In this document: positions 11,034-31,699 of the stretch, piece by piece
Layout of the letters: every line of letters begins with the position of its first letter
How positions within the stretch are numbered: the stretch's first letter is position 1
Assembly: GCA_003194425.1 (NCBI GenBank)
Contig: PQXB01000003.1
Span: 31,615 to 63,614 of the forward strand
From: Candidatus Methanophagaceae archaeon
Lineage (GTDB): Archaea > Halobacteriota > Syntropharchaeia > Alkanophagales > Methanospirareceae
Direction: 5' to 3'
Length of the DNA: 32,000 nucleotides
Made by a program: the position numbers and the translations under genes
Notes under the pieces: generated by a model
The model's input: only the letters and a program-made list of their open reading frames with translations
Told to the model about the DNA's origin: nothing
The model's database searches: none

Positions 11034-11200
11034 AACTTTGTGACTATGAAATGAGGAGGGCTGCAGAGTCCACGTTCTCTTGTTTAAACGCAGATTCGGT
11101 GTGTTTGTGAGAGCAACCAAGTTTGAGAATATTGTTAAAGAAGTTGTGCTGAATTATGCTGTGCTGAATTATGCTGATTTGTTACTTATTAGACAAACCA
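11034..11200 (+). repeat. Intergenic repeat module, copy A (65-nt core 11034-11098, diverged spacer, 31-nt distal block 11170-11200)
   Basis: By-eye alignment to the reverse complement of 31506-31699. The core has 62/65 identity and the distal block 29/31. The spacer is recognisably homologous but diverged and differs in length (71 vs 98 nt). The module contains a 15-nt x2 tandem (11146-11175). Confidence 0.85.
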
Positions 11201-11220
11201 GTAGCAAACGCCACTTTAGG

Positions 11221-14031
11221 TTAGGCGGCGAACTCTACTCCTTCCAGCTCTTTTCCAATCTGCTTTGCGATCTCCTCGGGTTCTGCTTTTGCTTCTGCTT
11301 CTTGCGTGGCTCTTGGGTTGTACTTCCAATTTGCTGTCTCGCTGCTGATCGTCGCGTACGGCGCCGTCGGCTCCAACAACGCAACGTACCACACCGCGTC
11401 AAACCCCACCGCACCCCAGTTTCCTACCAGAATCGAAAAGTTGTAGGTCTGGTCGAAGTTTGGCGGCAGCGTGAGCGGCGTGACCAACATTTGCGACCAG
11501 TAGCCGTAACTTGGCAATCCTAAGTACCAGACGAAATAAGAGTCTACGTCCACCGCGGTTGGGTTTTTTAAGCCGATTGTGACTGTCATCGTCTCGCCGG
11601 GTTTGTAGCTCGGTTTGTTTGTTGTGACTAAGACTGTTGGTTGTTTGGGTGTTGAGGGTACCAAAGGCAAATAATCCCCTCCTTTTATTATCTCTCCTGA
11701 GCAATTGTAGGGTATCTGCCAATCCCCGATACCGTCCTCGTCTACGTCAAACCCTTTGTAGTCGCTCCAGTAGTTTCCGCCCAGGTAAGGACCGCCGATT
11801 ATGCTCGTTCCCGCAGTTTTTGTGATGTTCCAACGGTTGTTGCCGTCGTCATAGGCGTTGTTCGTGTTGTTTGCGAAGTAGTTGTTGTAGATGAGATTGT
11901 TGTTACTCAAATTCCACAACCCAATGCCGTAGCCGTTGTCAAATATGTTGTTGTCAGAGATTGTGTTGCTGGCGGAATTTTCAAGACCGATTCCCTCCTC
12001 ATCGTTTGAATAGATGCTGTTATTCGAGATTATATTGTTGTTACTCAAATTCCACAACCCAATGCCGTAGCCATTGTCAGATATGATATTGTCAGAGATT
12101 GTATTGCTGGCGGAATTTTCAAGGTCAATTCCCTCCCCATTGTTTGATATGTTGTTGTCAGAGATTGTATTGCTGGCGGAATTTTCAAGGTCGATTCCCT
12201 CCTCATCGTTTGAATAGATGCTGTTATTCGAGATTGTATTTCTGCTCGAATTATAATGCCAGAGGCCATCGTCGTTTGAATAGATATTGTTATTCGAGAT
12301 GAGGTTGTTGTCGGAAGAATCCAAGGCAATGCCGTCGCCACTGGTGTCGAAAATGTTGTTATTCGAGATTGTGTTGCTACTTGGATTGAAAACAAGGAGG
12401 ATTCCATGCTCATTGTTTGAATAAATGCTGTTATCTGAGATTATGTTATTTTTACAAAACGGATGCCCCAACTCAAAGCCACTGTTGTCGTTAGATGCAA
12501 TGTTGTTAGTCAAAATGTTGTTTGAACCTGTTATGAAGAAGCCGTCGTAATTGTATGATGCACTGTTATTCGCTAAAGTGCAGTTGCTTGAATGTAGGGA
12601 AAAGCCATCGCCATCGTTGTTATAGTTTGCAGTATTATCAGTTAAAATGCTGTTGTTAGAAGAGGACAGGAAAAAGCCTCCGCCGTTGTTATAGTTTGCA
12701 GTATTATCAGTTAAAATGCTGTTGTTAGAAGAGGACAGGATGATGCCCTTCCATTTGTTGTTTGAGCAGTTATTTTTTGTTATCTCGTTGTTGTTTGAAT
12801 AATAGAGGCTGATGCCATAACCATCGTTGTTTTCGCATTTGTTGTTTGTTATCTCGTTGTTGTTTGAATAATAGAGGTCGATGCCATCCTTGTTTGAGCA
12901 GATGTTGTTTGATATGGTGTTGTTGTTTGAATCCCTGAAGAAAATGCCAGTCCCTCTGTTTGAGGAGCAATCGTTGCTGGATATGCTACTGTTGCTTGAT
13001 TCCACGAGAGAGATGCCAGTCCCTCTGTTTGAGGAGCAATTGTTGTTAGTTAAAGCATTGTTGCTCGAAACAGATAGGTCGATGCCGCCCCAGTTGTTGT
13101 AGTCAGCGGTGTTGCTGGTGAGCGTGTTGTTACTTGAATCTCTCAACGCGATGCCATCCCAATCGTTAGAATTCACGATATTGTCAGTGAGAATATTGTT
13201 GCCACCTCCAAAGATAGAGATTCCTCTCCTATTGTTACCAGAAACAATGTTGTTAGTTAAAGCATTGTTGCTCGAAGAATCCAGCCGGATGCCGTGGCTG
13301 TTGTTATTGGCGGTGTTGCCGGTTAAAGTGTTACCGCTCGAATCCTGCAAGTAGATGCCGTAGTTGTTGTTCGCAGCGGAGTTACTGGTAAGGGTGTTGT
13401 TGTTTGAATCCCTGAAGATGATGCCATAGCCATTGTTTGAGTCTGCGGTGTTGCCAGTGAGCGTGTTGTCATTCGAAAAACCCACGCTGATGCCGCCGCC
13501 GTTGTTTGATACGATGTTGTTCGTGAGTGTATTACTGGGCGCCCACCACAGAGAGATGCCTGCGTCGTTCATCTTTACATTGTTGTTAGAAATGTTGCAG
13601 TGGCTCGTGCTGTTTGTTGGTAATGTAGAAAGCGTTGTGACGAGGTAAATACCTGCTTTTCCTGGTCCAGCCGCACCTGTTACCGTGAACCCGATGATGT
13701 TCACATATTCCGCGGTTACACAAAAGACATAGTCGTTTGGATTTGCTGCCCGAACAGTGGTCGTGGCGGGACCGTTCTCCGAGCGGATCGTGAGCCGCTG
13801 CTTGCTCACATCCACGTTCTCGGTGTAGGTGCCGTCGCGCACGACGATTGTGTCGCCGGGCGAGGAGGCATTCATCGCCTGCTGAATTGTTGTGTAGTCG
13901 TCGGGCACGTAAATTGTTGCTGCACTCACGGCAGCAGGCGCAAGGGCAAGGGCTACAAGTAGCGAAATCGCAAAAACTGTAGTCGCTATTTTTCTGTTGC
14001 TTATTTTGGTTTTCATTTTTTTTGTTTTCAC
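11221..14031 (-). CDS. Secreted/surface right-handed parallel beta-helix repeat protein (NosD/PbH1-like) with C-terminal Ig-like domain
   Basis: An N-terminal signal/anchor (IATTVFAISLLVALALAPAAVSA) is followed by IYVPDDYTTIQQAMNASSPGDTIVVRDGTYTENV. About 25 repeats of 22-23 aa follow (NNTLTxNTAxNNxxGIxL). GGNYWSDY..DEDGIGD is present near the C-terminus. Confidence 0.85.
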   Translation of the reverse strand: MKTKKMKTKISNRKIATTVFAISLLVALALAPAAVSAATIYVPDDYTTIQQAMNASSPGDTIVVRDGTYTENVDVSKQRLTIRSENGPATTTVRAANPNDYVFCVTAEYVNIIGFTVTGAAGPGKAGIYLVTTLSTLPTNSTSHCNISNNNVKMNDAGISLWWAPSNTLTNNIVSNNGGGISVGFSNDNTLTGNTADSNNGYGIIFRDSNNNTLTSNSAANNNYGIYLQDSSGNTLTGNTANNNSHGIRLDSSSNNALTNNIVSGNNRRGISIFGGGNNILTDNIVNSNDWDGIALRDSSNNTLTSNTADYNNWGGIDLSVSSNNALTNNNCSSNRGTGISLVESSNSSISSNDCSSNRGTGIFFRDSNNNTISNNICSNKDGIDLYYSNNNEITNNKCENNDGYGISLYYSNNNEITKNNCSNNKWKGIILSSSNNSILTDNTANYNNGGGFFLSSSNNSILTDNTANYNNDGDGFSLHSSNCTLANNSASYNYDGFFITGSNNILTNNIASNDNSGFELGHPFCKNNIISDNSIYSNNEHGILLVFNPSSNTISNNNIFDTSGDGIALDSSDNNLISNNNIYSNDDGLWHYNSSRNTISNNSIYSNDEEGIDLENSASNTISDNNISNNGEGIDLENSASNTISDNIISDNGYGIGLWNLSNNNIISNNSIYSNDEEGIGLENSASNTISDNNIFDNGYGIGLWNLSNNNLIYNNYFANNTNNAYDDGNNRWNITKTAGTSIIGGPYLGGNYWSDYKGFDVDEDGIGDWQIPYNCSGEIIKGGDYLPLVPSTPKQPTVLVTTNKPSYKPGETMTVTIGLKNPTAVDVDSYFVWYLGLPSYGYWSQMLVTPLTLPPNFDQTYNFSILVGNWGAVGFDAVWYVALLEPTAPYATISSETANWKYNPRATQEAEAKAEPEEIAKQIGKELEGVEFAA
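12615..12740. repeat. Near-identical 69-nt-period repeat inside the beta-helix gene (57-nt identical cores at 12615-12671 and 12684-12740)
   Basis: Read directly. A further identical 39-mer pair (11896-11934 and 12034-12072) has a 138-nt period. Confidence 0.85.
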
Positions 14032-14177
14032 CTTCTAATTTTTTTATTTTTGTGTGCTCTTGTCGCGCCGAGCGTTTGGATTTCTCTTTCTTTCCCCCTT
14101 CTCGCCCACACCCACACAACAATATTCACACATAATTAAAGATAAAACTTAACGCTATAAAATGGTTAAAGTTTAAC

Positions 14178-17176
<2,999 letters not shown>

Positions 17177-17204
<28 letters not shown>

Positions 17205-18346
17205 ACTACTGCGTCGTATTTCTTACGACCCAAAATCTGCTCGATTTCTTTTGACTGCGCACCTTTAATCAGGTCTATTTCAGAGGAGGAGTAGTTTGAG
17301 ATGCCCTTTGCGAATTCCACGCCACCTGCGTCGGCAATGCTCACCGGGTCGCCACTCGCGAACTCGCCTTCAACACCAACGACGCCAGAAGCGAGTAGGC
17401 TGCAGCGGTTTTCTGTCAACGCCGTCTTTGCACCTTCGTCCACCTTAACCTTGCCCTTCACTGCGGAAGCGAACCTGAGCCAGTGCTTGCGGTCGTTAAT
17501 CTTTTCTACGGCGTCAGCCTCTGGAAGAAAAATTGTCCCGACGCGTTCGCCTGCTACGATTCGTGCAAGAATGTCCGCCTTGTTGCCGTTCGCGATGACG
17601 AGAGGAATGCCTGCTCGGGTTGTGATTTTGGCGGCTTGAATCTTTGTCTTCATTCCGCCCACCCCTGTTTTTCCGCCACTGCCCGCTGCTGCGAGACGCT
17701 CAATCTCAGGCGTCACTTCCTCTACAATCGAGATGATTTCTATTTTCTTTTTCTTGTTCCTCCCCTCCTTCTTACTCTTGTTCCTCCCCTCTTTCTTACT
17801 CCTTGGGTCGTGAGTGTACAAGCCTTCGGTGTCGGTAAGAATGACAAGCAAGTCTGCACCGAGGTTGCTCGCTACCAGGGCGGACAAGTTGTCGTTGTCG
17901 CCGAGTTTGATTTCGTCCACCGCGACGGTGTCGTTCTCGTTGATTATTGGGACTACACCGGACTTGAGCAACGCGAGGAGCGTGTTTCGGAGGTTGAGGT
18001 AGCGGCGTCTGTTGAAGAAGTCCTCGTGGGTGAGCAAGAGTTGGGCGATTGTCTGCCCGTGCTTGGTGAAAAACCTGTCGTAAGTGCTCATCAGGACGCT
18101 CTGACCGACTGCAGCGGTTGCCTGCAGCACTTTAATGTCGCGAGGACGCTGTTTTATGCCGAGTTTCCCAATTCCTGCACCGATCGCACCCGACGAGACT
18201 AAAATAACCTCTTTACCCTGCTTCTTCAGTTCAACCACCTCTCTGGCGAGTTTCTCGACTTTTCGTGGCTCAAGCCGGTAGCTCTTGTCGGTTAGGCTGC
18301 TGGTTCCGACTTTTACTACGACCCTCCTCATTTTTTTATTTCTCAT
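17177..18346 (-). CDS. proB: Glutamate 5-kinase with C-terminal PUA domain
   Basis: It shows the amino-acid-kinase fold pattern (VVKVGTSSLTD, VILVSSGAIGAG, PIINENDTV, GDNDNLSA, LTDTEGLY) and a PUA-like C-terminus. It carries a (KKEGRNKx)2 insertion. Confidence 0.88.
17753..17800. repeat. In-frame tandem repeat in proB: 24-nt cttgttcctcccctccttcttact x2 (1 mismatch)
   Basis: Read directly: 17753-17776 and 17777-17800. Confidence 0.9.
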
Positions 18347-19052
18347 TCTCCAAATCCAAAGCCCAGAGAACCCCTCGCAAGTCTGTCAGAACGAACTCCT
18401 CTTCTTTCCTCCCGCTTCTCACCTCTCTTCTCTCCCCGCTTCTGCCCTTGCTTCTGCTCCTCTCCAGAAAGAAGGAATTCATTCCGATTTTTCGCGGGTT
18501 GAGAAAATCGAAGACCCAGTGGTCACCTGTGTGAACGACCGCCTGCGGCTCCACACCCAGAATCTCGCAGACCCGCTCGTAAAAACCGTTTGACTTCTTC
18601 ACCGCTCCGAAGTCAGAGGTTGCGGAAAAGGTGTGGGAAAAGAACTTTTTTATCCCACGAATTTGAAATTCAACGAACTCCGTCGGCGCGTTCGAGCAGA
18701 CAACCAGCTCAAACCCCGCCTCCTTCAAAACCCTCAAAACCTCCTCCGCCTCCTCGTAAATCCTCACCTCTCCCTCGCACCGCCTAAACAACTCCTCACG
18801 CGTTACCTCCCCCTCCAAGCCAAACTCCCGCAGCCAGTAGTCAATTTTGTACCACTCGACCCGCTCCTCGCCCACTCGGTCGTACCTGCTCTTCACGAAC
18901 TCAAACGCCTGCTCAAAGCTCAACCCCTGCTTCGCGGCGTAAGCCTCTGGAACGCCTCGCAGCCAAACGCAGTCCGCAAAGCCCTGACTCACCAAAGTAC
19001 CGTCAAGGTCGAACGAGAAGACCGCTAACTCTTTAGCCCTCAGTTTTTCCAC
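18336..19052 (-). CDS. HAD-superfamily hydrolase (phosphatase-like)
   Basis: It has HAD motif I FDLDGTLV, motif II VCSNAP and a late GDHWVFD. It overlaps proB by 11 nt and lies 15 nt after the aminotransferase gene. Confidence 0.75.
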   Translation of the reverse strand: MEKLRAKELAVFSFDLDGTLVSQGFADCVWLRGVPEAYAAKQGLSFEQAFEFVKSRYDRVGEERVEWYKIDYWLREFGLEGEVTREELFRRCEGEVRIYEEAEEVLRVLKEAGFELVVCSNAPTEFVEFQIRGIKKFFSHTFSATSDFGAVKKSNGFYERVCEILGVEPQAVVHTGDHWVFDFLNPRKIGMNSFFLERSRSKGRSGERREVRSGRKEEEFVLTDLRGVLWALDLENEK

Positions 19053-20518: not shown

Positions 20519-21394
20519 ATGAAAGAGGTGCTGAGGCGGTTTGCGAGCGGGAAAATAAGTCTGGAAGAGGCGTGCGAGGTGTTGAAGACAGAGTTGAGGT
20601 TAGAGTTGAGGTCAGAGTTGAGGTCAGAGTTGAGGTCAGAGTTAAAGTCAGAGTTGAAGTTAGAGGGGGTGAGAAGAGTGAAGGATTTTGCGAGAATTGA
20701 CGCGGACCGACTGCAGAGGACGGGCGTGCCAGAAATAATCTTTGCCGAGGGGAAGAGCAGCGACGAGGTGGCGGAAATCGCTGTGGCACTCGCAACCGCA
20801 AAGGGCTTTGCGTTGGTGAGCAGGGCGAGCGGAGAAGACGCAGCCGCGGTAAAAGCTGCAGTAAAAGTGCGTGTAAAAAAAAATAAAAATAAAAGTAGAG
20901 ATGCAGAAGTAGAATTTGAGGTTGACTACAACGGTGCTGCGGGGACGGTTGTGGTGAAGAGGAGGGGGCACGAGTTTGAGAAGGCGGGAAAAATCGGCTT
21001 AATCGCGGCTGGAACCGCGGACATTCCTGTCGCCGAGGAGGTGAGGGTTGTGGCTGAGGTCTGCGGGTGTGAGGTGGTAAAAGCGTACGATGTGGGAATT
21101 GCGGGCTTGCACAGGCTTGTAGAACCGCTTGAAAAGATTTTAAGGGCTGGCGTGGCGGCGGTCGTCGTGGTCGCAGGAATGGAGGGTGCGTTGCCCTCGG
21201 TTGTAGCAAGTCTTGTGGACGTGCCTGTAGTAGGCGTTCCGACTTCGGTGGGCTACGGGTTGGGCGGCGAAGGAGTAGCAGCGATTCTTTCGATGCTGCA
21301 GAGCTGCTCGCCTGGTTTGGCGGTGGTAAACATTGACAACGGCGTCGGAGCGGGGACGTTCGCTGCAAAATGCGCGCGATATTTTCTCCGTTAA
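20519..21394 (+). CDS. larB: LarB-type (PurE-like) nickel-pincer cofactor biosynthesis protein
   Basis: D..R..RTG.PE.IFAEGKS is followed by a PurE-like C-terminal domain: IGLIAAGTADIPVAEE...VAGMEGALPSVVA.LVDVPVVGVPTSVGYG...L.SML.SC.PG.AVVNIDNG.GAG. An N-terminal (ELRS)n insertion is present. Confidence 0.8.
   Translation: MKEVLRRFASGKISLEEACEVLKTELRLELRSELRSELRSELKSELKLEGVRRVKDFARIDADRLQRTGVPEIIFAEGKSSDEVAEIAVALATAKGFALVSRASGEDAAAVKAAVKVRVKKNKNKSRDAEVEFEVDYNGAAGTVVVKRRGHEFEKAGKIGLIAAGTADIPVAEEVRVVAEVCGCEVVKAYDVGIAGLHRLVEPLEKILRAGVAAVVVVAGMEGALPSVVASLVDVPVVGVPTSVGYGLGGEGVAAILSMLQSCSPGLAVVNIDNGVGAGTFAAKCARYFLR
20591..20662. repeat. In-frame tandem repeat in larB: 12-nt gagttgaggtca x6 (outer copies slightly diverged)
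   Basis: Read directly. It encodes ELRLELRSELRSELRSELKSELKL. Confidence 0.9.
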
Positions 21395-22711: not shown

Positions 22712-24313
22712 TCAGTCCTTTCCGAACTGCTCCACCGCACTCTCCGCAGCGTCGACCATAACATCCCGATGCAACGAGACGCAGGGGTCAAAGCTCTTCT
22801 CCATTCTGCTCAACTCCTTCGCTGTCACCCCTTTTCTGATTGCGTTGCAGAGCCCGTCAATTCTGTCCGCAACCATTTCCTCGGAGACTAACTGCGCACC
22901 TACCAACCGCTCGGAATAAGAGTCGAAGAGCAATTTCACCGCCATTGTTTTCCTCCCTTGGTAGAACCTCGCTCTCGTTGGCTTTTCCTTCTTTCCGCTC
23001 ACCACTTTCATCCCGAACCTCGCAGCGGTCTCGGTTGTAATTCCTACCGTGCCTACTTGGAAGTCTGAGATCGTCGCCACCGCGGGGCTCAGGGCAGGCT
23101 CAAGCGAGTAGCCGACGCCCGTCAAATTATTTGCAACGACTTTCGCCTGCACCAGTGCGGAAGAGGCGAGTTGGCTCAGTCTCGGGCGAAGCGTAATTGC
23201 GTCTACGACCTCTACACAGTCGCCGAGTGCGTAGACATTTTTTATGTATTTTCCCCCCTCCGCCTGCCCCTGCCTTCTTTTAACCTGTAGGTACTGGTTG
23301 GTTACAATTCCGCCAGTCTCGCCGATTTGCAGACCTGCCTTCTCTGCCAATTCTGTATTTGGAATCATCCCTCTCGAAATCACGACAATATCTGCAGGAA
23401 TTTCCTCTCTTTCTCCCTCTCCCTCTCTTTCTCCCTCTCCCTCTCTTTCTCCCTCTCCCTCTCTTTCTCCCTCTCCCTCTCTTGCCTCTGGCCCTCCTAC
23501 CACGACTGACTTCACCTTTGACTTCACCTTCGCACCGTCGCCTTTTATCTCCTTCACCTGTTTTCCAAAAATGAACTCAACCCCCTCCTTCTCCAGCCTT
23601 GCACGAACTAAAGAGCCCATATCGGGGTCTAAAATGCTGGAGAGCGGTGTTGGATGCCCGACTACAACCCTCGTCTTCAACCCCTTTTTCAAGAAAGCGA
23701 GAGCCACCTGCAGCCCAATCGTACCACCGCCGAGAACCACTGCGTTCTTCGCTTCCGGAGAATTCATCGCCGCCTCTATCTTCTCGCCGTCTTCTACGGT
23801 GCTCATTGTGTAAACCCCTGCCAGTCCTCTCCCTTCTCCTTCTGCTCCAGGTATTTTAAGGACATCAGGGACACGAGGTCGCCGCCCGGTCGCGATTACG
23901 AGAAAATCATATTTTATCTCCTCTTCACTCCCGAGACTTCCAGGACTCCCAGGACTCCCGAGACTCCCAGGACTCCCGAGACTCCCAGGACTCCCGAGAC
24001 TCCCAAGACGCACGCTGCTCTCTTCTAAATTAATTCCCGTCGCTTCGGTCTCTGTTCGGTAGTCAATGCCGTGGCTAACGAAGGTCTCTGGCGGGTCAAT
24101 CTCCGCGACCTCCTTCATATTAAAAACCCCTTGCAATGCAAGTGGCACCGCGCAAATAGATGCAGAACCGCCCTTCTCCTTCTTCACAAGCGTTATCTCA
24201 AACTGCTTGAGAACCTCCGCCCCTTTCTTAAATAGTGCTTCCACCGTGTATGTCCCCGCGTCACCACCGCCAATTATCACTAATTTTTTCGCCATTTTCC
24301 CTCCTTTAAACAT
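22712..24313 (-). CDS. FAD-dependent pyridine nucleotide-disulfide oxidoreductase (CoA-disulfide reductase/NADH oxidase family)
   Basis: It has KKLVIIGGGDAG (FAD), a single redox Cys context SASICAVPLAL, VVLGGGTIGLQVA (NAD) and YALGDC. Two low-complexity insertions are present. Confidence 0.85.
   Translation of the reverse strand: MFKGGKMAKKLVIIGGGDAGTYTVEALFKKGAEVLKQFEITLVKKEKGGSASICAVPLALQGVFNMKEVAEIDPPETFVSHGIDYRTETEATGINLEESSVRLGSLGSPGSLGSPGSLGSPGSPGSLGSEEEIKYDFLVIATGRRPRVPDVLKIPGAEGEGRGLAGVYTMSTVEDGEKIEAAMNSPEAKNAVVLGGGTIGLQVALAFLKKGLKTRVVVGHPTPLSSILDPDMGSLVRARLEKEGVEFIFGKQVKEIKGDGAKVKSKVKSVVVGGPEAREGEGEREGEGEREGEGEREGEGEREEIPADIVVISRGMIPNTELAEKAGLQIGETGGIVTNQYLQVKRRQGQAEGGKYIKNVYALGDCVEVVDAITLRPRLSQLASSALVQAKVVANNLTGVGYSLEPALSPAVATISDFQVGTVGITTETAARFGMKVVSGKKEKPTRARFYQGRKTMAVKLLFDSYSERLVGAQLVSEEMVADRIDGLCNAIRKGVTAKELSRMEKSFDPCVSLHRDVMVDAAESAVEQFGKD
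23405..23476. repeat. In-frame tandem repeat: 18-nt ctctctttctccctctcc x4 perfect
   Basis: Copies lie at 23405-22, 23423-40, 23441-58 and 23459-76. It encodes (EGEGER)4 on the minus strand. Confidence 0.95.
23927..24007. repeat. In-frame tandem repeat: 9-nt actcccrrg x9
   Basis: Read directly. It encodes GSLGSPGSLGSPGSLGSPGSPGSLGS on the minus strand. Confidence 0.9.
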
Positions 24314-24332
24314 TCTCTATTTCAGTATAAAA

Positions 24333-25286
24333 ATGCAGGAAAGCCTGATGATGGAGTGCATACAGCGCATACAATGCGCCGAGGCGGTAGTAGAGTTAGA
24401 GGAAAACTGCGACCTCGTGTGTAAACGGCGAGTAGCGAAGCGGTACAGGGTAAAGGAAATAGACGAGCGGCTAAGGCGGGAGAGGACGAAGAGCGAAGCG
24501 AAAATAATCTCGGAAGCGAGGCGGAGAGGCGTCCTTACGCCAATTATTTTCGACATTTCCGACTACGAAATCGTGATGGAGCGGGTAGAGGGGGTCTTGG
24601 CGAGAGAGGTGTTTGAGCGGGAGGGCGAGGCAGACGAGGGCAGCGAAGTGGGTGAGGGCAGCGAAGTGGGTGAGGGCAGCGAAGTGGGTGAGGGCAGCGA
24701 AGCGGTAAGCGAGAAAATAGGCGAGTTTGTCGGCGTCTTGCACGAGAACGGGATAATTCACGGCGACTTGACTACCTCTAATATCATCGTCGTGAGACGG
24801 GACGGTAGGGAGAGAACCGTCTATTTCATTGACTTCGGGCTCTCCTTCTACGAATCGAGCGTAGAAGCGAGGGGCGTAGACGTGCACGTATTTTTCCAGA
24901 GCCTTCAAGGCACGCACGAAAGACACGAGCGTTTAAAGGACGGCTTTGTGCGGGGCTACAAAAAATCCTCCCCTGACGCAGCACGAGTGCTGAAAAGGGT
25001 AGAGGAAATCGAGCATCGGGGGCGGTACGTGAAGAGGAAGAGAGAGAAGACAGAGAACTGGAGAAGAGAGAAGACAGAGAACTGGAGAAGAGAGAAGAAG
25101 AAGAAAACTTCAACTCCAAAATTCCAAGACACTCACGTACGAGAGCGTTACAACCACCCCAGCGAGCAGCACGCCTGCAAAAATAGCACTAAACGCGTGC
25201 CTGCTGCGAATGCCGAAGACGAACGCGACTGCACACGCCGTCCAGGCTCCTGTTACGGGCAGAGGAACGGCGACGAACGGAATTAG
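24333..25286 (+). CDS. bud32: KEOPS kinase Bud32 (PRPK) with about 85-aa C-terminal extension
   Basis: From the ATG at 24333 I recognise GAEAVV, V.KRRV.KRYR....D..LRRERT..EA.....ARR.GV, IVMERVEG, IIHGDLTTSNI, YFIDFGLS, VD.HV and E.RGRYV. The first in-frame stop is at 25284-25286. The upstream 89 codons of the track ORF are antisense to the oxidoreductase gene. Confidence 0.85.
   Translation: MQESLMMECIQRIQCAEAVVELEENCDLVCKRRVAKRYRVKEIDERLRRERTKSEAKIISEARRRGVLTPIIFDISDYEIVMERVEGVLAREVFEREGEADEGSEVGEGSEVGEGSEVGEGSEAVSEKIGEFVGVLHENGIIHGDLTTSNIIVVRRDGRERTVYFIDFGLSFYESSVEARGVDVHVFFQSLQGTHERHERLKDGFVRGYKKSSPDAARVLKRVEEIEHRGRYVKRKREKTENWRREKTENWRREKKKKTSTPKFQDTHVRERYNHPSEQHACKNSTKRVPAANAEDERDCTRRPGSCYGQRNGDERN
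24636..24707. repeat. In-frame tandem repeat in bud32: 18-nt gagggcagcgaagtgggt x4 (last copy 2 mismatches)
   Basis: Read directly. It encodes (EGSEVG)n. Confidence 0.9.
25044..25091. repeat. In-frame tandem repeat at the bud32 C-terminus: 24-nt gagaagacagagaactggagaaga x2 perfect
   Basis: Copies lie at 25044-25067 and 25068-25091. It encodes (EKTENWRR)2. Confidence 0.9.
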
Positions 25287-25595
25287 CCCCAGAGACCCGT
25301 ATTTTTCCATTCGGTCGTTGTACCGCCTCGTTCGTGAGAAGAGCCAGTCAAAGAACCTGTCGAATGCCGAGAATCGCCGCAGCCAGTTTGAGACCGGCTC
25401 GAGAAAGAGGAGTAAAAGCACGACCGGCAGCATATTTCCTACTACCGAGAGAAGAAAGGCTCGTGAGGGCGGCATTCCGAAAAAGCTGATTGCAAACGGA
25501 ATGGAAGTCCGGAGCTCGCCAAACGGGACCGTAGCCATCAAGACCACCTGCAGGCTCTCCAACGCTGCTCCAGCAACAGCAAAACTGAAAGGCAT
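25110..25595 (-). CDS. Small multidrug export-like membrane protein (COG2426 / Sm_multidrug_ex-like)
   Basis: 161 aa with 4-5 TM helices. It contains PFGELRTSIPFAI and IPFVAVPLPVTGAWTA, which I associate with this family. Confidence 0.65.
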   Translation of the reverse strand: MPFSFAVAGAALESLQVVLMATVPFGELRTSIPFAISFFGMPPSRAFLLSVVGNMLPVVLLLLFLEPVSNWLRRFSAFDRFFDWLFSRTRRYNDRMEKYGSLGLIPFVAVPLPVTGAWTACAVAFVFGIRSRHAFSAIFAGVLLAGVVVTLSYVSVLEFWS

Positions 25596-25644
25596 ACTTC
25601 TTAATTAAGTTCGCACTTTTATAAAAGCAGGATAAAACCAAGCG

Positions 25645-27348
25645 ATGAAATTCGACCCAAAGCAGATAAGAGAAGAGACGAGGAGGGATTTTGAAGCCGC
25701 GTGGTTGGCGGGAACGAAATACGCGGGCGAGCGAAGCCTGAACGATAAATATCCGAGGTCCTTACTGCGTTTAGGTGTAGGAAAGCCGCACCCTGTTTTT
25801 GAGACGATTCAAAAGTTGAGAGAGGCGTACTTGCGGCTCGGGTTTGAGGAGGTGCTGAACCCGGTTGTGATTGAGGAGGCGGAAGTGAAGCGGCAGTTTG
25901 GAAAGGAGGCGCTTGCGGTTCTTGACCGCTGCTACTACCTCGCGGGTCTGCCTCGTCCTGACATCGGAATTTCAGACGAGCGGGTGAAGCGAATGAACTC
26001 GTTCCTCGAGGGGAAAGCGTTCTCGAAGGAAGCGGAGGAGGTAGAGGCGCTCAGGAGAACCTTGCACCGCTACAAGAAAGGCGAACTTGACGGCGACGAC
26101 CTGGTCTTTGCGGTGGCGGAGAGTTTGGACGTGGCGGACACGGAGGTGACGAAACTGCTTGACGGCGTCTTCCCGGAGTTGAAGAGCCTTGCTCCTGTCC
26201 CGCTCGGTTCAGCCGACTCGGGCAGTGGCAGGAGCACACTGCGAAGCCACATGACTTCAGGTTGGTTCTTGACACTTGCTGAGGTTTGGAAGAAGAGACC
26301 GCTGCCGCTGCGACTCTTCTCGGTGGACAGGTGCTTCAGGCGAGAGCAGCGCGAGGGCGAAATCCGACTCCGCAACTACCACTCCGCTTCTTGCGTGCTA
26401 CTCTGCGACGAGGCTGGTGACGAGGCTGGTGACGAGGCTGGTGACGAGGCTGGGGCAGGAAGAGGGGGAGTGAGCGTGGACGACGGCAAGGAGGTCGCGA
26501 CGGGGCTGCTTCTGCAGTTCGGGTTCGATAAAATGCGGTTCAGGGCGGACGAGAAGCGGTCAAAATATTACATTCCAGACACACAGACAGAAATTTTCTG
26601 CCACCACCCACGAATCGGGTGGGTGGAGGTGGCGACTTTTGGGATTTACTCGCCCACCGCCCTCGCACAGTACGACATTCCTTACCCTGTGCTGAATCTC
26701 GGGTTGGGCGTGGAGCGGTTGGCGATGATTCTGCACGACGCGGACGATGTGCGGGCGTTGGCGTTTCCGCAGTTCCACGCCGAGTGGCGACTGAGCGACT
26801 TGGAGTTGGCGGGGCTGGTGAGCGTTGCCGAGACGCCCTGCACCGCGGAGGGTGAGGAAATTGCGAGGGAAATTGTTCGGGTCTGCGAGGAAAAGGGCGG
26901 GGAGGAGTCGCCTTGCGAGTTCCTCGCTTGGCGTGGGTGCGTGTCTGGAGGAGGAGAGGGGAAGGGGGAGGTAGAGGTGTGGGTAGTGGAGTTGGAGGAA
27001 AAGACGCTTTTGTGCGGTCCCGCGTGCTTGAACGAGGTGGTCGTGCACGAGGGTTCGGTGCTTGCCGTGCCGAGGGGGAAGAAGGAGTGGGAAGCGGTCT
27101 TTGAGGCGGGCGTGCCGACTGGGATAAGATTTTTGGACGCTTTTGCTGCTCTTGCGGCTCGCAAGATTGAACTGTGGGGGGAGAGGGGGGAGGAGAAGAA
27201 CTGCGAGGTGAAGGTAAAAATGGTGAGGAGTGGGGCGGACGTGAACATAAAAATAGACGACTTGGCGGTGCGTTTTGTCACCTCGTGGAAGAAGAAGGTG
27301 GATTTGAGGGGACCTGTTTTTGTTACGGTGGTAGCTAAGCGGATTTGA
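25645..27348 (+). CDS. sepS: O-phosphoserine--tRNA(Cys) ligase (SepRS)
   Basis: The N-terminus is MKFDPKQIREETRRDFEAAW. It also contains YPR...GKPHPVFETIQKLREAYLRLGFEE..NPV, EALAVLDRCYYLAGLPRPDIGISDE and LRSHMTSGWF, which are diagnostic SepRS strings. It carries a (DEAG)4 insertion. Confidence 0.93.
   Translation: MKFDPKQIREETRRDFEAAWLAGTKYAGERSLNDKYPRSLLRLGVGKPHPVFETIQKLREAYLRLGFEEVLNPVVIEEAEVKRQFGKEALAVLDRCYYLAGLPRPDIGISDERVKRMNSFLEGKAFSKEAEEVEALRRTLHRYKKGELDGDDLVFAVAESLDVADTEVTKLLDGVFPELKSLAPVPLGSADSGSGRSTLRSHMTSGWFLTLAEVWKKRPLPLRLFSVDRCFRREQREGEIRLRNYHSASCVLLCDEAGDEAGDEAGDEAGAGRGGVSVDDGKEVATGLLLQFGFDKMRFRADEKRSKYYIPDTQTEIFCHHPRIGWVEVATFGIYSPTALAQYDIPYPVLNLGLGVERLAMILHDADDVRALAFPQFHAEWRLSDLELAGLVSVAETPCTAEGEEIAREIVRVCEEKGGEESPCEFLAWRGCVSGGGEGKGEVEVWVVELEEKTLLCGPACLNEVVVHEGSVLAVPRGKKEWEAVFEAGVPTGIRFLDAFAALAARKIELWGERGEEKNCEVKVKMVRSGADVNIKIDDLAVRFVTSWKKKVDLRGPVFVTVVAKRI
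26407..26454. repeat. In-frame tandem repeat in sepS: 12-nt gacgaggctggt x4
   Basis: Copies lie at 26407-18, 19-30, 31-42 and 43-54, with the last base of the last copy differing. Confidence 0.95.
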
Positions 27349-27356
27349 GTCTCTAA

Positions 27357-28916
27357 TCAAGACCCTCCCGCCGCCGCCCCACCGACCAAAATCCTCTTCA
27401 CCCGCACGTGCGGTGCGAATTCCGAGACCGGGACTTCTTGACCGTCCTTACCGCAGAACCCGATTGAACCTCGCTTCTTCTCCTGCCCCACCGCGTCAAT
27501 TTCTTTCAACACCTCCAGCGTCCTGCCCGAGAGCGAGACATTCTTCAGCCGCTTCGTGAGCCTGCCTTTCTCAATCAGGAACGCTTCTTCGGCGCTGAAC
27601 TGAAACTCGCCCCGCACCGTGTCCACCTGCCCCCCACGCATTCCCTTCGCGTAAATCCCAAACCGCACCCCCTCCAGCATTTCCTCAAAACTCCAACCTC
27701 TTCCCGCTCCCGCTCTCGAACCCGCTTCAACCACAGTGTTACTCATTCTGACCAGCGGAACTTCGGAATAATCAGCAGCCCTTGCGTTCGCAGTCGGCGT
27801 CGCCTCCAACCTGCCCGCGGTCTCCCTCGTGTGCAAGTAGGAGACCAGAACGCCGTTCTTTATTATTTCTGTCCTCCTCGCCCGCAGCCCCTCGTCGTCG
27901 TACTTGTAGTAGCCGTGCGACCCCACGACGGTCGGGTCGTCGGCAACGGTCAAGCCCTCGTAAGCTACCTGCTCGCCCAGTTTGTCCTTCAGAATTGACT
28001 CACCGCATAAAACGTGGTCGGCTTCCGCGGCGTGCCCGAGTGCCTCGTGCATAAAAACACCCGTGAGCTTGCTGTCCATTATTACAGGGAACTCGCCAGC
28101 AGGAGGCTGTTCAGCGTCAAGCAGCCTGACCGCCTTGTCCGCGGCCTTTACACCCACTACCTCGGGATTCCCCTCCGCTGCCACTCCCTCCGCTGCTACT
28201 CCCTCCGCTGCCACTCCCTCCGCTGCCTCTCCCTTCGCTACCTCTCCCTCTTCTGCCACGACCTCAAACCCAGCCACCGCTCCCACGCTCTCCACGCCTT
28301 CCTGCAGAACGCTGCCTTTCTTTGCAACTACACGCACGCGCAAAAAAACCGCAGGCATCTCAGTTACGACAAAACACCCCTCAGAGTCCGCGTAGGTCTT
28401 CTCCTCGTAGCCGTCCAAATACAAAATAGAAACGCTTTTTACGAGTGGGGAGTGCTGCGTTGCCGCTTTGTACGCTGCCTTAACCAGCCTCTTTTTCTCC
28501 TCTACGCTAACATCCTCAGGATTTATTTTCGGCTTCAGTTTAAAATGGTCGCTCCGCGGCTTCGCACCTGCCATTTTTACGGCTTCCTCCTCCCTCTTCT
28601 TCTCTAATTCTGACTTCTCCGATTCTAACTTCTCTGATTCTGATTTTGAGAGCGACAACGCCCTTCCAACCCTTAAAGCGTCCTCAAAAGCAGCCTTTAT
28701 TCTGGGCTTTGAGAGCTCGTTAGAGGAGGAGAAGCCCCACGAGTTTTTGTAGAGCACTCTTACGCCCACGCCCTCGTCAATTCCGTAACTCATTTCTCTG
28801 AAGACGCCGTCTCTCAATTCGAGGGTAGTTGCGTAACCTTTTTCGAGCCGAATGTCCGCGAATCTCGCCCCCTCCGAAATCACAAAATCCACTGCCTTTT
28901 TTATCTCTTCTTGCAT
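27357..28916 (-). CDS. tldD: TldD/PmbA-family metalloprotease (TldD-like)
   Basis: From the ATG at 28916 it reads MQEEIKKAVDFV...ADIRLE. It has the HEALGHAAEAD zinc motif, PLVRMSNT, and a GG-rich C-terminal fold. It carries an (AAEGV)n insertion. Confidence 0.88.
   Translation of the reverse strand: MQEEIKKAVDFVISEGARFADIRLEKGYATTLELRDGVFREMSYGIDEGVGVRVLYKNSWGFSSSNELSKPRIKAAFEDALRVGRALSLSKSESEKLESEKSELEKKREEEAVKMAGAKPRSDHFKLKPKINPEDVSVEEKKRLVKAAYKAATQHSPLVKSVSILYLDGYEEKTYADSEGCFVVTEMPAVFLRVRVVAKKGSVLQEGVESVGAVAGFEVVAEEGEVAKGEAAEGVAAEGVAAEGVAAEGNPEVVGVKAADKAVRLLDAEQPPAGEFPVIMDSKLTGVFMHEALGHAAEADHVLCGESILKDKLGEQVAYEGLTVADDPTVVGSHGYYKYDDEGLRARRTEIIKNGVLVSYLHTRETAGRLEATPTANARAADYSEVPLVRMSNTVVEAGSRAGAGRGWSFEEMLEGVRFGIYAKGMRGGQVDTVRGEFQFSAEEAFLIEKGRLTKRLKNVSLSGRTLEVLKEIDAVGQEKKRGSIGFCGKDGQEVPVSEFAPHVRVKRILVGGAAAGGS
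28171..28260. repeat. In-frame tandem repeat in tldD: 15-nt ccctccgctgccact, 4 good plus 2 degenerate copies
   Basis: Copies start at 28171, 28186, 28201, 28216, 28231 and 28246. Confidence 0.9.
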
Positions 28917-28984
28917 TTTTATAGAAACAAAACAGAATTTGTAGAAATAAAACAAAAGCAAAACAAAATCTAAAAAAGAAGAAG

Positions 28985-29058
28985 GGGGCTGTAGCTCAGA
29001 CTGGGAGAGCGCTCGGCTGAAGACCGAGTTGTCCCGAGTTCAAATCTCGGCAGCCCCA
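28985..29058 (+). tRNA. tRNA-Phe (anticodon GAA)
   Basis: Folded by hand. Acceptor GGGGCTG/CAGCCCC; D arm GCTC-AGACTGGGA-GAGC; anticodon stem CTCGG/CCGAG with loop CTGAAGA; T arm CCGAG-TTCAAAT-CTCGG; discriminator A. No CCA is encoded. Confidence 0.9.
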
Positions 29059-29079
29059 CTACGCCACTCTACCCAAGAA

Positions 29080-30495
29080 ATGATAACAATTGCGTTGGCA
29101 GGGAAGCCGAATTCAGGAAAATCAACATTCTTCAAGGCTGCTACGCTCGCCGATGTTGAAATCGCTTCGTACCCGTTCACGACGATTTCGCCAAATGTCG
29201 GGGTCGCCTACGCGAGGGTAAAATGCCCCTGCAAAGAGAGAGAGGTTCTGGAGGCTGTAGGAGGTGGTGGAGACGGCAGCGGAGACGGTGGAGACAGTGG
29301 AGACGGTAGAGACGGTAGAGACGGTAGAGACGGTGGAGACGGTGGAGACAATGGAGGTGGCGGAGGTGGCGGAGGCGGGTGTGGGAATTGCGTCGACGGG
29401 GTTCGCTTCGTGCCTGTAGGTCTCTTAGATGTTGCAGGTCTTGTCAGGGGTGCGCACGAGGGAAAGGGGCTGGGAAACGAGTTCCTGGACGAGCTCAGGC
29501 AGGCAGAGGCGATAATTCAGGTCGTTGACGCTTCTGGCGGGACAGACGCAGACGGGAATGTGGTGGAGCGCGGGACGCACGACCCCTACGAAGATGTCCT
29601 TTTTTTCCGGGAAGAACTGACCGAGTGGGTAAAGGGGATTTTAAGCAGAAACAAGCGGAAACTGGAGCGAAAATCTGAATTAGAGACAGGAGCAGGAGCG
29701 GGAGGCGGTGCGAAGACCGCACGGCTGCTTGCCGAGCAGTTAGCCGGCGTTGGCGTGACCGAGGAGCAGGTAAAAATCGCTATTTTGAAATCCCTCGTCG
29801 CGGGCAAGCCCAACCTAAAATCGTGGGACGGAGACGACCTCAAAGATTTAGCCGCGCAGTTGGTAAAGCAGAGTAAAAAAATGGTACTTGCCGCAAACAA
29901 GGCGGACGCAGCACCAGAGGCGGAGGAGAACATAAAAAAGCTGAAGGAACTTTGCGAAATTGAAGGAGAGGGCGAGGTAGTCCCGTGCTCTGCGGAGGCG
30001 GAGCTTGCGTTGAGAACTGCTGCAAAGAACGGGTTCGTAAAATACCTGCCCGGCGACACGGATTTTGAAATCTCTCCCTCTGCGTCGGCAGAAATTACAG
30101 AGAAGCAGAGACGAGGGCTGGAAAAAATACGAAAACTAATTCAAAATTTTGGCGGCACAGACGGCGGCACAGACGGTAGCGGCACAGACGGCACAGGCAC
30201 GGGAACTGGAACGGGCGTTCAAGCAATTATAAATCGTGTGGTCTTCGATTTGCTGGACTACGTGGTTGCGTACCCTGTAGAAGACGAGCACAACTTCAGC
30301 GACGGCTCGGGCAGAGTCCTGCCAGACGCGTTTCTTTTGAAGAAAGGTAGCACCGCGAGAGACCTTGCCTACGCAATTCATTCAGACATCGGCAGGGGCT
30401 TTCTTTACGCAATTGACGCGAGAACGAAGCGGAGGTTGGGGGAGAAGTACACACTGCGGAGCGGCGACATTTTGAAGGTCGTTTATGCGAGATGA
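29080..30495 (+). CDS. OBG/YchF-related GTPase (Ygr210-like) with C-terminal TGS-like domain
   Basis: From the ATG at 29080 it reads MITIALAGKPNSGKSTFF (G1). It also contains YPFTTI (G2), LLDVAGLV (G3), AANKAD (G4), and a C-terminal GDILKVV. The track start at 29029 would overlap tRNA-Phe. Two G/D/T-rich insertions are present. Confidence 0.85.
   Translation: MITIALAGKPNSGKSTFFKAATLADVEIASYPFTTISPNVGVAYARVKCPCKEREVLEAVGGGGDGSGDGGDSGDGRDGRDGRDGGDGGDNGGGGGGGGGCGNCVDGVRFVPVGLLDVAGLVRGAHEGKGLGNEFLDELRQAEAIIQVVDASGGTDADGNVVERGTHDPYEDVLFFREELTEWVKGILSRNKRKLERKSELETGAGAGGGAKTARLLAEQLAGVGVTEEQVKIAILKSLVAGKPNLKSWDGDDLKDLAAQLVKQSKKMVLAANKADAAPEAEENIKKLKELCEIEGEGEVVPCSAEAELALRTAAKNGFVKYLPGDTDFEISPSASAEITEKQRRGLEKIRKLIQNFGGTDGGTDGSGTDGTGTGTGTGVQAIINRVVFDLLDYVVAYPVEDEHNFSDGSGRVLPDAFLLKKGSTARDLAYAIHSDIGRGFLYAIDARTKRRLGEKYTLRSGDILKVVYAR
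29269..29379. repeat. In-frame tandem repeat: 9-nt rgagacggt / ggaggtggc units, about 12 copies
   Basis: Read directly. It encodes GDGSGDGGDSGDGRDGRDGRDGGDGGDNGGGGGGGGG. Confidence 0.9.
30151..30216. repeat. In-frame tandem repeat: 12-nt ggcggcacagac x2, then degenerate ggcacr units
   Basis: Read directly. It encodes GGTDGGTDGSGTDGTGTGTGTG. Confidence 0.85.
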
Positions 30496-30588
30496 ATTAT
30501 AACTTTTACATTTTCATTAAATAATTCTCCCTCTTCTCCTCCCCTTCTTACCTCTATTCTTTATGGCGTCTTTCTATTTACTATTTAA

Positions 30589-31155
30589 ATGCGTGTAATC
30601 GGAATAGACCCTGGAACTGCTCGCACAGGGTGGGGCGTTGTCGAGGTCCGCCAGCAGCACGGAGCCGAGAGACGCGGAGCCGAGGGAAAATTACAAACAT
30701 TAAAATCAATTGACTTTGGCTACATAAAAACAACCCCAAAGCACCCGAACTCAGAGCGGCTGAAAAAGATTTACGAGGCTCTGCTCGCGGTAGTAGAGAG
30801 CACGACGCCCGACGAAATGGCGATCGAGAAGATTTTTTTCAACGCAAATGTGAAGACCGCCTTGAGCGTTGGGCAGGCACGCGGGGTCTGCCTTTTAGCC
30901 GCAGCGGTCTCGGGGCTGCCCGCGTTCGAGTACAACACCTCTGAGGTGAAAAGCGTCGTAACAGGCTACGGCAGAGCGACAAAAAGCGAAGTGGCGAGCA
31001 GAGTAAAAGAGTTGCTTCGCCTTGAGGAGACGCCGAAGCCCGACGATGTTACCGACGCCCTTGCAATCGCTGCCACGCACATTTTTCTGAAATTCTCTGA
31101 AACTGGTGAAACTAAAACTAAAGTCGGACATTCAGGAGCAGCGAGAACGAAATGA
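30589..31155 (+). CDS. ruvC: Crossover junction endodeoxyribonuclease RuvC (bacterial-type Holliday junction resolvase)
   Basis: It contains MRVIGIDPGTARTGWGVV, MAIEKIFFNANVKTALSVGQARGV, EY....K..VTGYGRA.K..V, and PKPDDVTDALAIAATH. All four RuvC acidic catalytic positions are recognisable. Confidence 0.85.
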   Translation: MRVIGIDPGTARTGWGVVEVRQQHGAERRGAEGKLQTLKSIDFGYIKTTPKHPNSERLKKIYEALLAVVESTTPDEMAIEKIFFNANVKTALSVGQARGVCLLAAAVSGLPAFEYNTSEVKSVVTGYGRATKSEVASRVKELLRLEETPKPDDVTDALAIAATHIFLKFSETGETKTKVGHSGAARTK

Positions 31156-31462
31156 ACCAGAAAAAGACGGTCATAAAACCGATAGAAATCCAATCTTTCG
31201 CTCCTTTCAAGTCGGTGTGCAAGAACGGGTACACGAATTTCTGAAGCATAACCATAATAATTGCGACGAGCAGACCGTCTTCTGACGTGGGATTTTCCTT
31301 AAAAACGAAGAACGAAATGACACCTGCGAGAACGCCAAACAGAAGCGGCGTTAGCGTCTTCTTCAGCCCCTCCTCGTACACCTCCCTCTCCTTCTCTTCC
31401 TTCTCTTTCTTTTCCTTCTCCTTCTCTTCCTTCTCCCCTTCCTCTCTCTTCTCCCTCGCCAT
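31118..31462 (-). CDS. Small membrane protein with KE-rich N-terminal tail (possibly EMC6-like)
   Basis: 114 aa. A KE-rich low-complexity N-terminus is followed by 2-3 hydrophobic helices. The family assignment is a guess from size and topology only. Confidence 0.4.
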   Translation of the reverse strand: MAREKREEGEKEEKEKEKKEKEEKEREVYEEGLKKTLTPLLFGVLAGVISFFVFKENPTSEDGLLVAIIMVMLQKFVYPFLHTDLKGAKDWISIGFMTVFFWFISFSLLLNVRL

Positions 31463-31490
31463 TTTCTCAACTTATCTTAGAACTCCTTTT

Positions 31491-31699
31491 GGTTTGTCTA
31501 ATAATTGGTTTGTCTAATAATTAACAAGTCAGCATAGTTTTACCTGTCTAATCTAATCCAGCATAAACTAACTAACTTTCTTACCACACTCATAAACTTC
31601 TCTCATAATCAATCAAAATCTGAACAAGGCAGTTCGAATCTGCGTTTAAACAAGAGAACGTGGTCTCTGCAACCCTCCTCATTTCATAGTCACAAAATT
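31491..31699 (-). repeat. Intergenic repeat module, copy B (core 31635-31699; distal block 31506-31536; 16-nt x2 tandem 31491-31522)
   Basis: This is the reverse-complement homologue of 11034-11200. On the minus strand it starts 5 nt after the glutamate-synthase-like stop and ends about 30 nt upstream of the ATG of the small membrane protein. Confidence 0.85.

Follow-up and report, generated by a model that had tools for sequence, protein, structure and literature searches.

Two intergenic segments of similar sequence and opposite orientation lie 20.5 kb apart in a contig of ANME-1, a methane-oxidising archaeon that has not been cultured and is known from metagenomes alone, and they raise the question of what kind of element they are and whether the DNA between them has been rearranged. 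The window analysed here is the whole 32,000-nt stretch that contains both. A sequence-only reading had described an inverted repeat of two intergenic copies, and it lies where that reading put it: the core arms (11034-11098 and 31635-31699) match at 62 of 65 positions (95% complementary) and the distal arms (11167-11200 and 31506-31539) at 31 of 34 (91%), with none expected by chance. Searching the window with either half of the core gives exactly two occurrences, against 0.00 expected from shuffles. The same reading saw a self-contained module of 170-210 bp; instead, both copies are 5'-truncated members of a dispersed intergenic repeat of 232-336 bp. They are probably immobile, left-truncated relics of a low-copy, MITE-like, non-autonomous family of IS5-family, IS903-like origin in ANME-1 (Methanophagales).

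When full-length copies are compared with the window by blastn and alignment, the homology proves longer than first noted. Copy A (10971-11200, + strand) corresponds to positions 83-297 of a 297-nt full-length copy in contig L009, and is missing the left terminal repeat as well as the greater part of the left arm, which bears the promoter. Its homology starts 16 nt past the asd stop with a U block (10971-11021; GAAGGATTGAAGAAACC..AAGAGGCTCTT..AAGAAAGAGAG), which is shared with L004, L006b, L007, L009, L015 and L016 and is not an asd-specific flank. A type 1 insert follows (11022-11047; TTGTTATTGAACAACTTTGTGACTAT), found in some copies only; those without it have a type 2 segment with a T-run or, as type 3, a short junction. 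Next come the core (11048-11098; GAAATGAGGAGGGYTGCAGAGWCCACGTTCTCTTGTTTAAACGCAGATTCG), which is the segment that all copies conserve, an A-type spacer (11099-11177) holding a local TGCTGAATTATGCTG duplication, and the right terminal inverted-repeat region (11178-11200; TTTGTTACTTATTAGACAAACCA), all on the + strand. Copy B (31490-31699, - strand) corresponds to about positions 138-336 of a 336-nt copy in L007. It also keeps 14 nt of the type 1 insert, followed on the - strand by the core (31635-31685, located by repeat finding and occurrence counts), a B-type spacer and a tandem pair of right-terminal 15-mers (31490-31520; the pair at 31506-31520 and 31490-31504). The terminal 15-mer, TTATTAGACAAACCA, occurs three times in the window, once in copy A and as this tandem pair in copy B.

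Copy A is flanked on the left by asd, encoding aspartate-semialdehyde dehydrogenase (9789-10955, + strand; Pfam PF01118 and PF02774), and at 11200 it abuts the 3' end of a convergent gene for a 936-aa NosD/beta-helix repeat protein (11221-14031, - strand), a junction with the right end of the element that is also present in L006b. To the left of copy B is the 3' end of gltB, a glutamate-synthase-domain gene (31705-32000, - strand; PF01645). Directly downstream of its right end is a gene for a KE-rich membrane protein, an archaeal EMC6 homologue (31118-31462, - strand; PF19094), whose start codon lies 27 nt from the end of the outer 15-mer. The gene distances given earlier are right (asd stop at 10955, glutamate-synthase-like stop codon at 31705-31707), but the placement 3' of amino-acid biosynthesis genes is incidental, as asd and gltB merely abut the truncation points. 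The left neighbours of full-length copies are divergently transcribed and of unrelated functions: a YkgJ-type cysteine-cluster protein, superoxide reductase, DUF3160 and a putative PHP-type gene, identified by its N-terminus alone. Between the two window copies lie proB and genes for a HAD hydrolase, an aminotransferase, an ABC ATPase, SepRS, PmbA/TldD, tRNA-Phe, a GTPase and RuvC, and no transposase, integrase, Cas1 or PolB was found there. A mobile island, casposon or composite transposon bracketed by the copies is ruled out because this interior consists of housekeeping genes.

Scanning the metagenome collection for an exact 23-mer gave nine copies in eight contigs, all from one ANME-1 (Methanophagales) lineage whose flanking genes are 96-99% identical to those of the window. 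Full-length copies measure 232-336 bp with discrete ends (TGGATTGTYGRATAA ... TTATTAGACAAACCA) and consist, in order, of a left terminal repeat, a left arm, a variable middle (type 1, 2 or 3), a 51-nt core, an A, B or B' spacer and a right terminal repeat. At least five left-flank types and at least five right-flank types meet the element at identical nucleotides, and the number of distinct flank types suggests roughly 6-8 copies per genome. All positions are intergenic, and 15-110 nt separate the ends from the start codons of divergent genes. In line with restriction to this lineage, the nearest other species (Mch 86% identical) has no element at its mch locus. Among GTDB representative genomes, a 20-mer from the first core half gave a single chance match, in the gammaproteobacterium L001, with no extension past the 20-mer; thus the lineage lies outside that set or lacks that exact 20-mer. 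No match to the core, the left arm or either end turned up in the viral contigs scanned, and there is hence no sign of a viral or plasmid origin. In the window's own strain, Logan contigs built with k=31 end precisely at the element, which is how a multi-copy sequence behaves. The element explains short-read assembly breaks at these ANME-1 intergenic regions.

The ends of the element point to an insertion sequence. The left end and the reverse-complemented right end agree at 12 of 15 positions, exactly at both homology boundaries, and with up to three mismatches the terminal 15-mer occurs only four more times in about 90 kb. Compared with the IS903B terminal repeat GGCTTTGTTGAATAAATC, read from plasmid NZ_MK552109.1, the left end TGGATTGTTGAATAAAAT matches in register at 13 of 18 positions, including a 12-nt identical run (TTGTTGAATAAA), and the right end at 12 of 18. 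In L031, a left arm is followed by a correctly oriented, frameshifted transposase remnant (..PEHSTL.., ..IVIDSTGIKVDGE..KRWKVKRKG..), which is identical to the IS903B transposase at 15 of 25 residues (E 1e-5) and matches Pfam PF13737 (DDE_Tnp_1_5) at E 0.0024 and 18.7 bits, under the gathering cut-off of 28.1. Neither an intact autonomous partner with the same ends nor, in a protein search, an intact relative of this remnant was found. The element itself, whose sole ORFs span 3-30 codons and are unconserved, encodes no DDE transposase (DDE_Tnp_1_5 and DDE_Tnp_1); with only the sub-threshold remnant in L031, it is at most an IS derivative and not a member IS. IS903-like parentage is the likely origin, and the canonical archaeal TATA box in the left arm (GGAAGTTTATAAAGG) would then be the former transposase promoter.

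Past transposition probably brought the copies to their sites, with target duplications that have since degraded. No clean target-site duplication surrounds any single full-length copy, and the flanks examined are AT-rich and shuffled. The best 9-mer candidate (8/9) is shared by the Cxx and EMC6 flanks, which are not adjacent today; another candidate is an 8-mer within a low-complexity T-run. Relatives with a Cxx about 65-67% identical (L024, L025) were inspected for the former Cxx/EMC6 adjacency that the 9-mer predicts and show no conserved synteny. A candidate unoccupied target site lies at 14661-14668 (AAAAAATG) in the 33-nt ribC/DUF3160 spacer, which is empty both in the window and in the independent contig L037. 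In L006 each side of this site runs into an element end, and both junctions carry about 8 nt (CATTTTTT); the 8-mer agrees at 6/8 between its copies and at 7/8 with the empty site. Judged from these sequences, L006 and the window may differ by an insertion into the ribC/DUF3160 spacer followed by an inversion, an additional step that the empty-site comparison needs.

That the inverted copies could serve as a substrate for inversion had been proposed from the window, and L004 bears this out in part. It runs from the 3' end of asd through the core and a B-type spacer into the gene for the KE-rich EMC6 homologue and RuvC, which is one of the two junctions expected from inverting 11099-31634; the reciprocal junction was not found. 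The broader idea of a recombination substrate is supported by many further flank exchanges at the same element among assemblies. The window holds the asd-NosD and gltB-EMC6 arrangements, and elsewhere the flanks are paired as Cxx-PCNA (L002, L026, L027, L029, L030), Cxx-mch (L014, on the same contig as L028), SOR-mch (L009, L016, L017), LF2-mch (L015), LF2-ribC (L005, L006), DUF3160-NosD (L006), PHP-EMC6 (L007) and asd-EMC6 (L004). The inside of the element is mosaic as well. Pairwise alignment agrees with the earlier description of a more diverged spacer of unequal length, but the divergence is not gradual: at least three alternative spacer variants (A, B and B'), each about 95-97% conserved internally, have been exchanged between loci. 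Even within one locus, each of three features (middle segment, core SNPs, spacer type) assorts independently of the others, and the SOR-mch locus has a different middle type in each of three strains. Identity of 85-97% among the copies would allow homologous recombination and gene conversion to exchange flanks and shuffle internal segments, and exchange between oppositely oriented copies would produce inversions.

These joins were seen in short-read metagenome contigs of mixed strains, so some could be chimeric, and a sceptical account would keep the repeat and ascribe every between-strain rearrangement to assembler joins at it. All rearranged contigs are indeed assemblies of this kind, and the breaks at k=31 fit such an origin. 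However, the longest exact run between different copies from the same sample or from the window is 26-71 nt, shorter than the read length and than k=141 (implied by the k141_ contig names), which counts against chimeric joins. The arrangements also recur in independent assemblies (SOR-mch three times, Cxx-PCNA five times), and the variant combination in L004 is its own rather than a splice of two known haplotypes; wholesale chimerism is quite unlikely. Were the joins genuine, they might still be the work of an invertase or a tyrosine recombinase with the palindrome-rich core (CTGCAG, GTTTAAAC) as its target, as the inverted copies, the sharply conserved core and the exchange of flanks at the element would suggest. 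Yet no recombinase gene adjoins any copy in Pfam listings covering about 350 kb of related contigs, and the independent assortment just described leaves the exchange points unfixed. Site-specific inversion is extremely improbable, and the recombination appears to be homologous.

Other accounts concern function rather than rearrangement. Conserved ends around a diverged middle had been taken as functional constraint, and the element might work in regulation or as a non-coding RNA, be it as an sRNA gene, as a 5' leader or as a portable promoter cassette under selection upstream of housekeeping genes, with the core as its working part. The core is somewhat better conserved than the spacers between the A and B subfamilies, near-invariant where the spacers differ by about 35-40%, which could reflect selection rather than gene conversion. 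The left arm has its TATA box, copy B has a TATA-like box 20 nt upstream of its core, and right ends are always 20-90 nt upstream of the start codons of EMC6, ribC, PCNA and mch. Against this, the conservation pattern is that of mosaic exchange between subfamilies, and 25 nt of the core are deleted in L027 and L029 at an otherwise intact Cxx-PCNA locus. There is no RNA signal either: an Rfam search at the gathering score and up to E 10 gave no match, folding z-scores are about 0 on both strands (-0.07 to -0.8), and the covariation check of the alignment with RNAalifold found no compensatory change in any pair, a positive covariation term and variable sites that break predicted pairs. A small ORF of 19-30 codons starting at ATGAGGAGG (MRR[AV]AE[ST]TFSCLNADS..) was rejected, as all its variation is non-synonymous and the L027/L029 deletion shifts its frame. 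Evidence is thus lacking for a structured RNA, for a small protein and for constraint on the core, and with the element missing from mch in the nearest sister species, a selected regulatory unit is unlikely. A related view holds that the element was co-opted as a switchable promoter cassette, in which gene conversion would swap the middle segment and toggle read-through into mch, PCNA, ribC and EMC6. The type 2 middle, unlike types 1 and 3, has a T7/T5 run shortly after the start site predicted for the internal TATA promoter, and the three middle types at SOR-mch are compatible with such switching without demonstrating it. This is very unlikely, though if true it would amount to recombination-based expression variation in an uncultured archaeon. 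There is a small but appreciable chance that the element was never mobile, being a native divergent-promoter intergenic region that was segmentally duplicated and rearranged and then homogenised by gene conversion, its inverted-repeat ends serving as paired transcription-factor sites. The lack of clean target duplications, the low copy number (one per roughly 20-kb contig), the promoter distance of both ends from divergent genes and the tandem repetition of the terminal 15-mer, overlapping a GTTTGT-N10-ACAAAC palindrome, all fit this account. Segmental duplication would, however, hardly give the same end points with five unrelated flanks per side, and the in-register resemblance of the left end to the IS903 terminal repeat, the IS903-type remnant behind the left arm and the unoccupied ribC/DUF3160 site in the window favour a mobile origin.

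Read as relics of a MITE-like family, the copies reveal no new class of RNA or regulator. The kind of element is ordinary, and it is first seen here in this host, where it ties a repeat of an archaeon to the IS903 group within the IS5 family. The copies also indicate that repeat-mediated inversions and flank exchanges set closely related strains of the Guaymas type apart beside the core genes mch, PCNA, ribC and asd.

Close known counterparts are MITEs that derive from IS elements by internal deletion, with archaeal examples in Sulfolobus and haloarchaea. Like them, the element is short, non-coding, bounded by terminal inverted repeats, present in several discrete-ended intergenic copies, variable between strains and linked to an IS-type transposase remnant; unlike them, it is very low in copy number and strongly mosaic inside, with three middle and three spacer types, and clean target duplications and an intact parent were not found. 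Other counterparts are IS903 and IS903B (IS5 family, IS903 group) of enterobacteria, with which it shares 13 of the 18 left-terminal nucleotides in register and, through the L031 remnant, the ..VIDSTGxKVxGE..WKVKxxG.. motif and the DDE_Tnp_1_5 region. IS903 duplicates 9 bp of target, the length of one candidate duplication here (8/9, its flanks now apart). The element differs from IS903 and IS903B in its archaeal host, its lack of a transposase and its terminal bases (TGG vs GGC), and the protein match of the remnant is short and under the curated Pfam cut-off. Correia elements of Neisseria and ERIC-type intergenic repeats are also small, bounded by inverted repeats and found near gene starts, with possible outward promoters and a role as rearrangement hot spots. 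The element is unrelated to them in sequence, occurs in another domain of life and has a promoter by prediction only, but it resembles them in its working, as a small, inverted-repeat-bounded recombination hot spot beside gene starts.

The inverted pair of repeats picked out by the sequence-only reading was recovered at the same place by a repeat search, with 65-nt arms at 11034-11098 and 31635-31699 (95% identity) and a second pair of arms at 11167-11200 and 31506-31539 (34 nt, 91%). Each core half has exactly two matches in the window, against 0.00 expected from shuffles, and the spacings that reading gave from the stop codons of asd and of the glutamate-synthase-like gene are correct. Alignment with sibling copies shows both window copies to be left-truncated, with extents of 10971-11200 (copy A, plus strand) and 31490-31699 (copy B, minus strand). 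Copy A has a single terminal 15-mer TTATTAGACAAACCA, and copy B has a tandem pair of it. Both window copies are truncated relics of what is probably a MITE-like, low-copy derivative of an IS5/IS903-type element, specific to this lineage. As a substrate for homologous recombination, the element would change which genes are neighbours in different ANME-1 strains.

A scan of representative genomes for the element gave a single match, due to chance, and an exact 23-mer scan of JGI metagenomes returned nine copies on eight contigs (L002-L009). The genes flanking these copies share 96-99% identity with the window, so the contigs derive from sibling strains. Additional contigs were gathered via look-ups of the Mch and YkgJ proteins. 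The retrieved sibling contigs of ~20 kb (L014, L026-L028) carry one copy apiece, and in the nearest other species the element is absent at mch. The YkgJ-type cysteine-cluster protein, encoded by the gene termed Cxx here, is identical to PXF51530.1 (‘Candidatus Methanophagaceae archaeon’), Mch of a sibling contig shares 82% identity with ‘Candidatus Methanospirareceae’ proteins, and the genes for Mtd, SepRS, and Cgi121 indicate a methanogen-related archaeon; these assignments place the host in ANME-1. In a sister ANME-1 species (L019, 7-3582), the MCM gene contains an intein with a LAGLIDADG endonuclease domain, according to its Pfam listing.

Full-length copies are carried by L002, L006 (copy L006a), L007, and L009 (237-336 nt), and by further contigs (232-323 nt). 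Their outer ends are TGGATTGT and ACAAACCA. The left end, TGGATTGTYGRATAA, is followed by a left arm with GGAAGTTTATAAAGG, a canonical archaeal BRE/TATA, then by one of three alternative middle segments (types 1, 2, and 3), a 51-nt core, a spacer of variant A, B, or B′, and the right end TTATTAGACAAACCA, which is tandem-duplicated in some copies. The element may supply promoter sequence to genes on its right.

The ends of the element are discrete. The same element nucleotide is joined by five different left flanks, namely YkgJ/Cxx, the unnamed gene LF2, superoxide reductase (SOR), DUF3160, and a putative PHP-type gene, taken to be such from its predicted N-terminus (MRYDLHAH) alone. The right boundary likewise joins PCNA, ribC, mch, EMC6 (a KE-rich membrane protein gene), or the NosD 3′ end. 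Aligned with the right terminus in reverse complement, the left terminus agrees at 12/15 positions, and only four other 15-mers in ~90 kb are comparable to the element termini. No clean target duplication is found among the copies compared. The best candidate emerges when L006 is set against the window, where the divergently oriented ribC and DUF3160 genes adjoin, 33 nt apart, an order also seen in an independent Logan contig. L006 has the ribC-NosD segment in the opposite orientation, with an element copy on either side, the two copies being inverted relative to each other, and ~8 nt of the ribC/DUF3160 spacer (CATTTTTT, one mismatch each) are kept at both new junctions. An insertion and a later inversion between copies would give this arrangement, as would a replicative event within one molecule, but the retained sequence is a T-run. 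A 9-mer (8/9 match) connects the Cxx left flank with the EMC6 right flank; in more distant relatives, synteny is too scrambled to bear on this link.

Conserved ends around a diverged middle had been taken as a sign of functional constraint. In the window the pattern is one of mosaicism rather than purifying selection, because part of the core can be lost and spacers move between loci: two independent assemblies (L027 and L029) share a 25-nt deletion that removes CGTTCTCTTGTTTAAACGCAGATT from an otherwise intact Cxx-PCNA locus, and spacers A and B behave as alleles exchanged from one locus to another. Rfam returned no match, either at the gathering score or with E up to 10, and folding energies on both strands are no different from those of shuffled sequence. 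RNAalifold on seven distinct copies gave a positive covariation term with zero compensatory pairs; variable sites are few, and they break the predicted pairs. A short ORF starting ATGAGGAGG was rejected as a peptide, its variation being exclusively non-synonymous.

Neighbourhoods of the element differ between assemblies. The element in front of mch has any of three left flanks: SOR (L009, L016, and L017), Cxx (L014, the same contig as L028), or LF2 (L015). Five assemblies join Cxx to PCNA, and one joins it to mch. EMC6 is paired with gltB in the window, asd in L004, and the PHP-type gene in L007. The partner of asd is NosD in the window, EMC6 in L004, and unrelated DNA in L003 and L008. Inversion between the window copies, proposed from sequence, gains from L004 exactly one predicted junction (asd-EMC6), but the reciprocal junction was not recovered in the retrieved contigs. 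Rearranged contigs could also be products of chimeric assembly, which is unlikely because different copies from one sample, or from the window, share exact runs of at most 26-71 nt. The k=31 Logan contigs from the window's own strain end at the element. Middle type, core SNPs, and spacer type vary from strain to strain even at a single locus, a variation that points to gene conversion and to crossovers whose positions differ, rather than to a fixed recombination site.

Ordinary chromosomal DNA fills the 20.5 kb between the copies, encoding a NosD-like beta-helix protein, archaeal riboflavin synthase, DUF3160, proB, a HAD hydrolase, an aminotransferase, an ABC ATPase, a pyridine-nucleotide oxidoreductase, a Bud32-like kinase, SepRS, PmbA/TldD, tRNA-Phe, an Obg-like GTPase, and RuvC. 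This interior contains no transposase, integrase, Cas1, or PolB, so the stretch bounded by the inverted copies is not a mobile island.

Several features of the surrounding genes were also observed. The full-length RuvC Holliday-junction resolvase (30589-31155, plus strand; PF02075, E 4e-42), the gene for which overlaps the EMC6 gene 3′ end to 3′ end, is of bacterial type, which is unusual for archaea, where Hjc is the normal resolvase. The longest ORF of the GTPase gene (29029-30495, TTG start at 29029) overlaps tRNA-Phe (28985-29059), and the true start is probably an ATG near 29077. The NosD-like protein (936 aa; gene 11221-14031) contains 69-nt (23-aa) repeats at 11881-13540; its L006 orthologue is shorter, with alignments in several registers, which shows that strains differ in the number of repeats. 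Many conserved housekeeping proteins of the window contain in-frame low-complexity tandem-repeat inserts (6027-6146, 8497-8600, 10491-10540, 20581-20664, 23404-23490, 23927-24010, 28171-28260, and 29263-29378), among them Cgi121 (GEGKGE..), asd (AGAGAG..), an AIR-carboxylase-domain protein (SELRSELR..), an oxidoreductase (GSPGSL.., EGEGER..), PmbA (AAEGVAAEGV..), and the GTPase (DGRDGRDG..). Their repeat number is strain-dependent; the asd AG-run, for example, is longer in L008. Just upstream of asd, this one sibling strain carries a ~1.4-kb segment (L008, 131-1552) flanked by a ~113-nt direct duplication of the asd 5′ end, encoding a 288-aa protein with a PD-(D/E)XK/NucS-like C-terminus and fragments resembling nucleotidyltransferase-type toxin-antitoxin genes.

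The comparison with IS903 used a reference found with a 77-nt Tn903 string, which occurs at 100% identity in thousands of plasmids, at sites adjoining genes annotated ‘IS5-like element IS903B family transposase’. The IS of NZ_MK552109.1 has GGCTTTGTTGAATAAATC at one boundary and an inverted copy of that sequence at the other. At the Cxx locus of L031 (260-575, minus strand), the element's left arm is directly followed, on the same strand, by a frameshifted remnant of an IS903-type transposase (..LPEHSTLHE.. and ..ITIVIDSTGIKVDGERIKKRWKVKRKGFLKI). After this remnant comes a direct repeat, two copies of CTCAATCTTGTAACCCC, with the contig end close beyond. The remnant matches Pfam DDE_Tnp_1_5 below the cut-off (E 0.0024) and is identical to IS903B transposase at 15/25 residues (E 1e-5). 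L031 would represent an autonomous or parental copy that has decayed, and the element's internal TATA box may be the former transposase promoter. The remnant supports the IS903 link independently of the terminal repeats, where the element's left end, TGGATTGTTGAATAAAAT, matches the IS903B repeat at 13/18 positions in register, including a 12-nt identical run.
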